From IMG/VR virus record IMGVR_UViG_2690316121_000006: a DNA stretch of 64,000 nucleotides; one strand, given 5' to 3'. Below the pieces are notes generated by a model that saw nothing but the letters and a program-made list of their open reading frames with translations, searched no databases and was not told the origin of the DNA. This document shows, piece by piece, positions 11,126 through 12,527 of this stretch (position 1 is its first letter; every line of letters begins with the position of its first letter). The stretch comes from a virus (taxonomy: Duplodnaviria; Heunggongvirae; Uroviricota; Caudoviricetes). The translations under genes and the position numbers were made by a program.

Positions 11126-11910
11126 CATTCACCGCAACGGAAAGAGCATTCTTGGTGGACCTGTAGATTGGGATATGAACCCGTTACAGGAGAATGCTCT
11201 TACCTGTTACGTGCTCCGTTTCGTGGAGCTAACGGCGGGTGATCGGGCCGCACCAGACTGGACTTATTTCAGCGTTATGCTCATGCCAGAGAATCAAACT
11301 GTGATGGTCGGTGCTGAACTCCGACACAGGGTTGTAGCAAGCCCCGCAAAGCGCGCACTACTGTAGTTGCGGCACATCAGCCTGTGCATTCACCACAATG
11401 TTGAGAACACTGGTTGTCACGCTGCAACGCAACATTTATTCGTAGATTGGGATATGACCCCGTTACGCCAGTGTTCTCAACGTTGTAGTGCCGGTTACGG
11501 TTCCGGCCAGGCCTCTTCCTCAACGGGGTGTTCTCCATACGGACTACCGTTTATTGGTCGTTCCTGCGGTTTATGTTGTGAAGCCAGATGCTTATCTTCT
11601 GGTTGCTTCAAAGAGCTGCACTTCATCACAACGGTAAGAGCACTCGATGCATTTAAGCCAAGCCCCATAAGGGAGAATGCCCTTACCTGTTGTGTTGTGA
11701 TGACCGGTGCTGATCTCCGGCTTGCGGTTATTTCAGACTCTCACGGGCGTTTAATTGCCCCGCCGAACAGCTCTTTTCCGCAATAGCTGCAATGTCTTTC
11801 GCGCATCAGCCTGCGCATTCATCACAACGGTAAGGGTACTTCGTAGGGATTCGAACCCTCTGCCAAGCTCGGCGATCTCCGACGTCGCAAAATACCCTTA
11901 CCTGTTGTGC
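11126..11910 (-). repeat. array of four 80-105 bp hairpin elements with conserved terminal inverted repeats (CACAACGGTAAG...CTTACCTGTTGTG family)
   Basis: copies at about 11126-11213, 11387-11490, 11621-11700, 11816-11910; partial 3' arm at 12334-12349. Confidence 0.55.
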
Positions 11911-11986
11911 TGGTGCCGATTAACGGACTCGAACCGCTGACATCCTGCTTACAAGGCAGGCGCTCTACCAACTGAGCTAAACCGGC
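11911..11986 (-). tRNA. tRNA-Thr (anticodon TGT)
   Basis: 76 nt: GCCGGTT acceptor, anticodon loop CTTGTAA, T-arm GGTTCGAGTCC, 3' ACCA. Confidence 0.8.
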
Positions 11987-11988
11987 AT

Positions 11989-12064
11989 TGGCGATGGTGG
12001 ATGGATTTGAACCATCGACCCGTTGATTAACAGTCAACCGCTCTAACCGCTGAGCTACACCATC
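11989..12064 (-). tRNA. tRNA-Asn (anticodon GTT)
   Basis: 76 nt: GATGGTG acceptor, anticodon loop CTGTTAA, T-arm GGTTCAAATCC, 3' GCCA; 2 nt from tRNA-Thr. Confidence 0.8.
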
Positions 12065-12527
12065 ACTTGCCGGGTACGTCTCCGGCGAGGGCTTCCACCT
12101 CCGTATGCTTTTCGGCGCACCGCGCCCTGGCTGCAATTCGGTAACAGGGGATGCATAACCCTGGCTTCCAGCGTGATTAGCGCTTTCAGCATGACGGGAT
12201 ATACCCGTAAATTCGTGGAACTGTACCCAAAGTGCTGTTAAGCACCGCTGTTACGCTGAAAAGAAAACGCAACAGGAAAGGACGCTGACCAACAGATGGC
12301 CCCTTCTCGTTCATCTGGTTAATCACACCAGCGCCCTTACCTGTTGTGCCTCCCCGTTCCCTAATACACAGACGGGGACACTCTGCGGTCGATTTTTTGA
12401 CGGGGGACGACTCATACCCCGTGGCGTCTGGCTTCTTAGGCCGCTACCATCATCAGATCATCGTTTGCATTTACTTTAATGGTCAGTTTCTAAACCGCCG
12501 CAAAGTCGCTAACCATGACGAAAACCC

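Follow-up and report, generated by a model that had tools for sequence, protein, structure and literature searches.

An array of about 1.7 kb, made up of hairpin-forming RNA elements, tRNA genes and modules resembling small RNAs (sRNAs), was characterised in a 64,000-nucleotide stretch of the Caudoviricetes virus record IMGVR_UViG_2690316121_000006 (this whole stretch is referred to below as the window), where it lies between the promoter Pban and the gene tciA. The array represents a large phage RNA family for which no description was found in the literature available. An earlier note, prepared from the letters of the window, had reported four hairpin repeat elements beside the tRNA genes, and this observation is confirmed: the elements are RNA structures and members of a phage family, here called E. 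The note had overlooked a fifth hairpin, the modules lying between the hairpins (S) and an adjoining module (M) that resembles transfer-messenger RNA (tmRNA) and that is the most consequential lead of the analysis.

The four elements lie where they had first been placed, with shifts of a few bases (E1, 11132-11212; E2, 11392-11490; E3, 11626-11695; E4, 11822-11910; all minus strand), while a supposed lone 3' arm at 12334-12349 proved to be one arm of a complete fifth hairpin, E5 (12268-12349, minus), in which it pairs with the arm at 12270-12287. At 19-23 bp, the stems exceed the 12-17 bp originally estimated; an outer helix of 6 bp is separated by a bulged A or a mismatch from an inner helix of at least 13 bp, and all five copies have the roughly 20 bp of mostly uninterrupted double-stranded RNA that characterises RNase III substrates, with one bulge or mismatch each. 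The arm motif CYCTTACCTGTTRYG occurs four times in the window, always within 11197-12348, against 0.01 occurrences expected from shuffles. The arms of E2 differ in sequence (CGUUGAGAACACUGG / CCAGUGUUCUCAAC) and still pair, E2 being a compensatory variant rather than a degenerate copy. Folded individually, every element is far more stable than its dinucleotide shuffles on the minus strand (z −4.1 to −6.6), which is the strand of tRNA-Thr, tRNA-Asn and the ban operon. Because of G.U pairs, the minus-strand folds are 3-10 kcal/mol more stable than the plus-strand folds for all five hairpins.

The five copies differ mainly in their tips. E1 (dG −35.8, z −4.1) has the arms ACGUAAC-A-GGUAAGAGCAUUCU / AGAAUGCUCUUUCC-GUUGCG and a tip containing GGGUUCAUAUCCC, to which the tip of E2 is related; the arms of E2 (CUACAA-CGUUGAGAACACUGG / CCAGUGUUCUCAAC-AUUGUGG) are 91% complementary over 23 nt (dG −49.2, z −6.6). 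E3 carries a short tip, CCCUUAUGGGGCUUGGCUUAAAUGCA, of a type also present in FelixO1-like, T1-like and lambdoid arrays and found in four lineages. E4 (dG −42.3) begins 1 nt past the CCA of tRNA-Thr, and its tip is a mini tRNA-like fold with a D-like arm (GCGACGUCGGAGAUCGC) and a T arm (AGGGUUCGAAUCCCU) and without an anticodon arm; as first reported, the T-arm sequence GGGUUCGAAUCCC is present there and no cloverleaf is called at standard thresholds. E5 (dG −41.7, z −5.4) lies directly 3' of module M. Among the five copies, a T arm with a UUCRANY loop is present in E4, the loops of E1 and E2 being non-canonical (UUCAUAU) and E3 and E5 having none.

Sensitive blastn searches with the hairpin region matched 223 phage records, the matches being short arm-plus-flank segments in otherwise unrelated phages, and the E family was found in P1-like, lambdoid, T1-like, FelixO1-like, Vi01-like and N4-like phages. 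The matches lie inside a tRNA cluster in SUSP2 (FelixO1-like), upstream of tRNA-Met in swi2 and within a run of tiny 'ORFs' (open reading frames) in Klebsiella phage Magnus (Ackermannviridae). For comparative analysis, 130 loci were gathered, mostly by a pattern scan of IMG/VR, and E was sought near M and on the strand of M; this gave 131 distinct E hairpins, of which 107 passed the stricter pairing filter used for family counts. In each member of the family a hypervariable tip tops an inner helix of 13 bp, below which come, in most cases, a bulged A and then an outer helix of 6-7 bp. Literature searches returned no description of the E family, Rfam holds no family for it and the records examined carry no annotation of it. 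Gaps of 1-2.4 kb without annotated genes coincide with arrays in the N4-like phage PD38 (L130 891-2844), the Kuttervirus SenALZ1 (L132 646-3070) and Serratia phage Kevin (L131 1370-2445).

There are strong indications that the E hairpins are selected RNA structures. The earlier note had made its reading depend in part on conservation of the stem pairing across related phages, and the pairing is indeed kept with compensatory changes. Both-sided changes occur at 14 of the 19 stem pairs (71 distinct arm pairs), the covariation score is 0.485 compared with 0.186 after shuffling, with none of 500 shuffles reaching the observed value, and the outer helix also covaries, with three or more compensated forms (CACAAC/GUUGUG, AACUAUC/GAUAGUU and CGAAA/UUUCG). 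Across the 131 distinct E hairpins, G.U pairs outnumber A.C mismatches by 322 to 52, and the pairing is therefore kept on one strand only. This orientation is shared with the neighbouring genes: tRNA genes are on the strand of M in every scanned locus that carries tRNAs (34 of 60 loci), and E is on the same strand.

In contrast to the stems, the tips are hypervariable, ranging from 22 to 236 nt and falling into at least 46 unrelated families among the 107 distinct hairpins, 12 of which carry a T-loop-like motif in the tip. One tip type of 170 nt holds the core of a type I hammerhead (CUGACGAG..CGAAAC..GUC), in which no core nucleotide is missing (Rfam 24.7 bits versus a threshold of 34); this core lies at L058 7921-7967 (minus) and also in L092 and L118, and a hammerhead core in one tip family fits a need to open the loop. 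An antisense search with the tip sequences found no matches outside the arrays in ~1 Mb of phage sequence. The third pair from the loop end is a U.G wobble in 46 of the 56 M-adjacent E hairpins and in 15 of the 39 others. Reading the inner stem as a permuted alanine acceptor, with this U.G serving as G3.U70 after excision of the loop, was considered and rejected, as the helix extends to ~21 bp, no T arm lies alongside and the wobble is absent from E5 of P1. A resemblance of the common 3' arm to boxA was likewise set aside: the arm (window 11197-11207 and 11680-11690, and family-wide) contains UGCUCUUU, identical to the start of the rrn boxA consensus, but many members carry the compensated forms GUACCCUUACC, GUGUUCUCAAC and GUGCCAUUACC, the sequence is buried in the stem, and the match is probably coincidental.

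The genomic context of the array could be established by comparison with P1, as positions 10900-12800 of the window share 99-100% identity with P1-like phages including JL22 and RCS47. Pban and the C1 operator Op72, a palindrome, map from the P1 annotation (NC_005856) to 12718-12749 (strand not assigned), and leftward from Pban, on the minus strand, that annotation gives a dicF-like region, tRNA-Asn, tRNA-Thr, tciA (10558-10983, with a TerB domain), tciB, tciC, tRNA-Ile/Met and ban. For the ~1.7 kb array between Pban and tciA, the P1 annotation consists of two doubtful ORFs and the 'dicF-like region' (12522-12623, minus), which lies upstream of M. ARAGORN and Rfam place tRNA-Asn(GUU) at 11989-12064 and tRNA-Thr(UGU) at 11911-11986, both on the minus strand and within the array. 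These are the only two tRNAs of the array in the window; the P1-like arrays L002, L003, L010, L046, L079 and L095 have an extra tRNA-Tyr(GUA), tRNA-Ser(UGA) or tRNA-Arg(UCU) in varying slots. No sigma-70-like promoter sites were found in 10900-12800 and no minus-strand terminator from 12530 to 10984, the single minus-strand intrinsic terminator of the stretch being that of the dicF-like region (12557-12538). Given the lack of a promoter-like site on either strand between 12530 and 10984 and the position of this terminator, the region from ~12530 to tciA is most simply one read-through transcript, with Pban as its presumed source.

Along this transcript the E hairpins hold constant positions relative to other units. 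Directly 3' of E there is an S module in ~64% and M in ~22% of the 107 distinct hairpins; in the window, E4, E3, E2 and E1 are each followed directly by an S module and E5 comes after M. On the 5' side, E usually abuts a real tRNA or a hairpin of 5 bp: hairpins of 5 bp or more that end 0-3 nt ahead of the 5' arm accompany 61% of E, compared with 13.6% of random positions. The commonest combinations of upstream hairpin and outer helix total 12 layers, and 5+7 or 5+1+6 geometry is seen in about 60% of E. Examples in the window are GCUCC-ACGAAAC-GGAGC (11213-11229, minus), which abuts the 5' arm of E1 in the T-arm position of a 5+7 stack, and GCCGG-AACCGUAA-CCGGC (11490-11507, minus), which abuts the 5' arm of E2; E3 is preceded at a few nt by the T-like arm of an S module (S1), and E5 by the terminal hairpin of M. 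The closing pair is G-C in 75 of 107 E (70%) and the bulged base is A in 73 of 82 bulged copies. Upstream hairpin and outer helix together resemble in layout the acceptor/T-arm 'top half' of a tRNA in permuted order, with a G1-C72-like closing pair and an A73-like unpaired base. The inner hairpin occupies the slot of the intervening sequence in two-piece tmRNA genes.

That the E hairpins are processing punctuation on the leftward Pban transcript, separating the units of the array, is the leading model, for which we judge the case to be evenly balanced. The earlier note had offered tRNA-derived pseudogenes, processing-dependent small RNAs and protein-binding sites as possibilities; the second fits best because the structures covary, lie on the transcribed strand, are interleaved with tRNAs and sRNA-like modules and fall in a terminator-free stretch, whereas the first does not describe the family. 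Under the punctuation model, every E would be a site of cleavage by host enzymes: RNase P would act on the 5' side of the G with which the downstream module begins, 3' trimming would follow at the bulged A, and RNase III could cut in the ~20-bp stem, either helping or acting first. An untranslated leader of ~1.7 kb would in this way yield M, tRNA-Asn and tRNA-Thr, four S RNAs and the hairpins of the tips, and its dense structure would also shield it from Rho and RNases ahead of tciABC-ban. In evolution, the conserved arms serve as recombination points at which units are shuffled between phages.

Several considerations weigh against this model. The actions of RNase III, RNase P and 3' trimming at E are all proposed from shape, and RNase P is normally impeded where leader and trailer pair, as they do in the inner helix. 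Canonical T loops are missing from the upstream hairpins, and ~40% of E have no directly abutting hairpin by the criteria used. The tips are long and structured and some are conserved across phage families, which argues for tip functions beyond punctuation. Even the structural statistics call for restraint: E arms are 90% paired, compared with 35-59% in slid registers, a percentage inflated by selection as the E finder accepted only stems with 17 or more of the 19 positions paired (the covariation counts suffer less from this), and E sequences share descent or transfer, so that the counts do not represent independent events and give strong indications only.

Known systems offer partial parallels to such punctuation. 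Hartmann et al. reportedly showed in 1995 that the precursor of the P1 C4 RNA is a non-tRNA substrate of RNase P. RNase III processing hairpins separate the units of polycistronic phage and rRNA transcripts, for example R1-R5 of the T7 early RNA; like these, E stems are ~20 bp long with a bulge or mismatch and recur in several copies between units of one long transcript, but they differ in having conserved sequences, long and variable tips and flanking noncoding RNAs rather than mRNAs, and cleavage at E is putative. Stable RNAs encoded together with phage tRNA clusters (T4 species 1 and 2 RNAs) and large phage noncoding RNAs near tRNAs (GOLLD and ROOL), of largely unknown function, are a further parallel. 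The RNAs of the array are likewise noncoding, structured and situated in or beside phage tRNA genes; they have no sequence or model match to those RNAs, and E, S and M make up an array of modules that are shuffled, not a single large fold. Another parallel in layout is the permuted tmRNA gene, whose form and maturation by tRNA-processing enzymes have been described (PMC11915505). As at its acceptor junction, E presents in order a helix strand, an unpaired A, a hairpin to be excised, the complementary strand and the downstream RNA, with a stem-loop abutting the first strand like a T arm, and in T1-like loci E lies directly upstream of the tmRNA-like coding module. Unlike permuted tmRNA, E has no canonical T loop upstream, no encoded CCA and no G3.U70 in the outer helix, and the junction is reused before S.

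The tmRNA-like module M (12352-12527, minus, ~175 nt) comprises, in order, a domain antisense to tmRNA (12527-12480), a 12-nt A-rich linker, a tag ORF running from GCA to UAA and encoding ANDDLMMVAA (12468-12436, first flagged by ARAGORN in relaxed mode), a pseudoknot hairpin (12422-12388) and a terminal hairpin (12377-12352). The same arrangement occurs in swi2 (tag ANEEMYLAVA), Magnus (ANDDVVLMAA) and SUSP2 (ANDNVFLAVA), and all 125 M instances have exactly 10 codons plus a stop with the pattern AN[DE][DEN]xx[LM]x[AV]A. The constraint on the tag is of the coding type, with synonymous variation and all four codons used for the last Ala, while an overlapping ATG frame is not conserved. In the pseudoknot, the hairpin loop pairs with a downstream segment in compensated versions (CCGA/UCGG, CCAG/CUGG, CCAA/UUGG and GUCG/CGAC), and the Rfam beta_tmRNA model places its own pseudoknot on the same positions. 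M helices were checked one by one, as all-against-all covariation on the M alignment was uninformative, its signal swamped by clade structure, and RNAalifold gave a poor consensus. M was found in 334 phage records and, out of 5,426 complete E. coli genomes, in 670, with no RNA annotation among the matches listed. The element ahead of M is a terminator in P1 and a promoter in swi2-like phages; in other contexts it is an E hairpin.

M shares with tmRNA (SsrA) the resume region AUAAAU|GCA AAC GA, a 10-codon AN[DE]..A tag, a stop codon in a hairpin and a downstream pseudoknot; it differs in lacking the tRNA-like domain (TLD), PK3 and PK4 and in having 5' 50 nt that are antisense to host tmRNA. No TLD (G3.U70 acceptor, T arm and CCA end) is conserved across M contexts, and one proposed by ARAGORN in relaxed mode was rejected, having no G3.U70, no CCA and no conservation. 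Rfam gathering scores for tmRNA were not reached (tmRNA_permuted, 24.8-26.3 bits versus 47; beta_tmRNA, 13-17 versus 84, with partial alignments). Literature searches found no description of M or its tag peptides, and the accessible portions of tmRNA surveys of 2014 and 2025 list no enterobacterial phage tmRNAs. The default ARAGORN 'tmRNA' of phage swi2 (L007 1758-2132, minus) spans E to tRNA-Met with an implausible tag; it is likely a false positive and could mislead annotation.

A profile built from 97 distinct M sequences and run against the E. coli K-12 ssrA locus gave a single match, on the strand opposite to ssrA (E = 2.5e-4, the search space being small). A profile and duplex energies are needed to see the relation, as blastn of M against E. 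coli genomes does not match ssrA. RNAduplex pairs the 5' 50 nt of M (window 12480-12527, minus) with nt 54-107 of tmRNA (ssrA L134 194-556), a segment that starts in pseudoknot 1, of which it takes in the 3' half, and extends through the linker and the resume codon into the tag, of which it includes the first five or six codons. In P1, swi2, PD38 and Magnus, four of the five lineages tested, the duplex comprises 36-43 pairs, almost all of them Watson-Crick, whereas that of SUSP2, which keeps a different and more contiguous antisense part, is shorter (26 pairs, nt 76-107, dG −27). For the twelve commonest 5' domains, dG ranges from −41 to −49 kcal/mol with z of −3.4 to −5.7, and 0-2 of 300 shuffles equal these values. 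Pairing of the domain with M's own downstream part is far weaker (−17 to −30 kcal/mol), and the domain itself is nearly unstructured. The conserved blocks among M variants are the pairing blocks; a comparison of conservation between paired and unpaired columns of the 5' domain gave no significant difference (p = 0.23), since conservation extends over the entire domain and variable linkers drop out as gaps. Tips, S cores, the 12065-12265 spacer and the dicF-like region showed no significant duplex with host tmRNA, and within the array the complementarity is specific to the 5' domain of M.

The antisense domain suggests that M docks on, or inhibits, host tmRNA. The reading frame on E. coli tmRNA is determined by U85 and A86, and a stable helix can stand in for pseudoknot 1. 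The 12-nt linker of M, from the duplex end to GCA, has U at −5 and A at −4 and mirrors the 11-nt linker of E. coli tmRNA; given the role of U85/A86 and the replaceable pseudoknot, docking of M on host tmRNA to offer its own tag is physically plausible. M, having no TLD of its own, would borrow that of the host by pairing with nt 54-107, exchanging pseudoknot 1 for an intermolecular helix and burying the host resume codon. The linker would then present M's GCA resume codon, and stalled proteins would receive ANDDLMMVAA or its variants instead of ANDENYALAA, while TLD-like tips such as that of E4 could add titration of SmpB. The broader proposal, that phages reprogram host ribosome rescue by a system for which the hairpin array provides the processing framework, is tentative, and we hold it to be possible rather than probable. 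A simple antisense block of trans-translation by M is the conservative alternative and a weaker form of the same idea.

The variability of the tips raises another explanation, in which the hairpins are display scaffolds whose stem presents a variable RNA (decoy, aptamer or pairing seed) against factors of the host or of rival phages, E4-type tips acting as tRNA-like or TLD-like decoys for SmpB, EF-Tu, RNase P or tRNA-targeting defence nucleases. The many unrelated tip families inside near-identical stems would be accounted for in this way, as would the retention of E3-type and E4-type tips across unrelated phage lineages. The E4 tip, with a D-like arm containing GG, a canonical T arm and no anticodon arm, resembles the TLD of tmRNA, and a TLD-only RNA of mycobacteriophage DS6A has been reported to inhibit tmRNA (PMC4131195). 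Against this, no target or partner was found, the tips being unmatched outside arrays in the ~1 Mb searched and lacking significant complementarity to tmRNA, and display leaves the constant placement of E at module boundaries unexplained. We regard scaffolding as a somewhat doubtful account of the hairpins, one that is compatible with punctuation and not exclusive of it.

It is unlikely that E acts as DNA, whether as a mobile element like a miniature inverted-repeat transposable element (MITE) or as a recombination hotspot, with inverted repeats that have no RNA role. Near-identical 40-nt arm segments do occur in unrelated phage families, and the arrays are mosaic: the number of hairpin/S units is polymorphic, reference P1 (NC_005856) lacks 173 bp of the window (11645-11817) with the junction inside the shared arm repeat, and other P1-like genomes have units rearranged or tRNA-Ser or tRNA-Tyr inserted. 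Arm recombination clearly shuffles units. Yet compensatory changes preserve the helices, the orientation of E is fixed relative to tRNAs and M, and the 322 to 52 ratio of G.U to A.C is strand-specific pairing, whereas DNA repeats of the MITE or repetitive extragenic palindrome kind would occur in either orientation irrespective of transcription and lack such pairing.

A description of E as decayed tRNA genes from a larger phage tRNA cluster is largely refuted, and we give it very little credence. The perfect T arm of E4, an overlapping 'tRNA-Tyr' called there by ARAGORN in relaxed mode and the extra tRNA-Tyr or tRNA-Ser in the same array of related P1-like phages speak for it; standard ARAGORN and Rfam (RF00005) find nothing in E1-E5 and call only tRNA-Met, tRNA-Thr and tRNA-Asn, the relaxed call overlaps tRNA-Thr and folds poorly, T-loop-like motifs are confined to the few tips counted above, and the conserved, covarying part is a 19-23 bp stem found in no tRNA. 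Equally improbable is a protein-coding role, with Upl and Plp encoded on the plus strand and the repeats incidental: the ORFs (11175-11366 and 11367-11786) are open and annotated in NC_005856 with predicted promoters, but neither matches Pfam, plp starts at TTG and is Cys-rich and of low complexity, the same DNA has RNA-type covariation on the opposite strand, and plp is full length in 10 of 51 related loci; as entire modules are gained and lost, it is broken or re-framed in loci of differing module content. The earlier view of both ORFs as spurious is thus supported by the lack of Pfam matches, the TTG start and the few intact copies, and falls short of proof.

The S modules have an outline that is tRNA-like overall, in which a closing helix (GUGAUGA...UCAUCAC) is followed by two unpaired bases and a 5' hairpin (GCGCAGGCUGAUGCGC) and then, beyond a variable core, by a 3' hairpin of the form CCGG-9 nt-CCGG. 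Four lie on the minus strand of the window. S1 (11694-11828) is closed by a 10-bp helix (GUUGUGAUGA/UCAUCACAAC) and has 97-98% identity to a segment of lambdoid/Stx phages between cI and the leftward early genes; lambdoid loci with S1 also hold the Hfq-binding RNA isrK (RF01394, 67 bits; L004 4980-5056 and L005 5035-5111). A short S-like module after E3 (11571-11632), read directly from the sequence, has the form GUUGUGAUGAAGUGC ... CCAGAAGAUAAGCAUCUGG-CUUCACAAC. S2 (11301-11396) runs from GUGGUGA-AU-GCACAGGCUGAUGUGC to a T-like arm, GUCGGAGUUCAGCACCGAC-CAUCAC, and S3 (11017-11136), between E1 and the start of tciA, has an outer helix UGCGGUG...CACCGCA and the 3' hairpin CCGGGAGGCACCCGG.

This architecture agrees with that of the Rfam family STnc100 (RF02076), with its outer helix (UGGUGAAU...CACCA), 5' hairpin, variable core and CCGG..CCGG 3' hairpin. 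S3 scores 41.9 bits against this model, under the gathering score of 47, and S1 and S2 were not detected by it in the window search; among 16 loci, one S alone, in phage Magnus, reached the gathering score (52.9 bits). The full STnc100 model adds a terminator, whereas the S modules of the window have none of their own. STnc100 and PasD have been described as related prophage-encoded sRNAs with differing seed regions, some of them cut from longer transcripts (bioRxiv 10.64898/2026.05.13.724894), and the likeness to them is a feature of the S modules, not of the E hairpins. Elsewhere in the window, the C4 antisense RNA and its a1/b1 target, known P1 immunity elements, reach Rfam gathering scores at 33729-33814 and 33883-33935 (minus).

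P1 is among the most studied phages, yet its annotation of the ~1.7 kb holding the array is limited to the two doubtful ORFs and the 'dicF-like region', and the matched phage and E. coli records examined carry no RNA annotation for M. Arrays of this type, with their modules shuffled, are shared by hundreds of enterobacterial phages of the P1-like, lambdoid/Stx, T1-like, FelixO1-like, Vi01-like and N4-like groups. Three RNA classes (E, S and M) are now defined for annotation, probable false protein genes are removed, and large 'empty' gaps in many phage genomes are explained by arrays. If E hairpins do act as permuted tRNA-top-half signals, they would give a virus a compact means of having an RNA operon cut by the tRNA enzymes of its host. 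Should M dock on host tmRNA, it would be the first natural mRNA-like domain to act in trans, and phages would rewrite the host ribosome-rescue tag, going beyond supplementing or blocking the host system.

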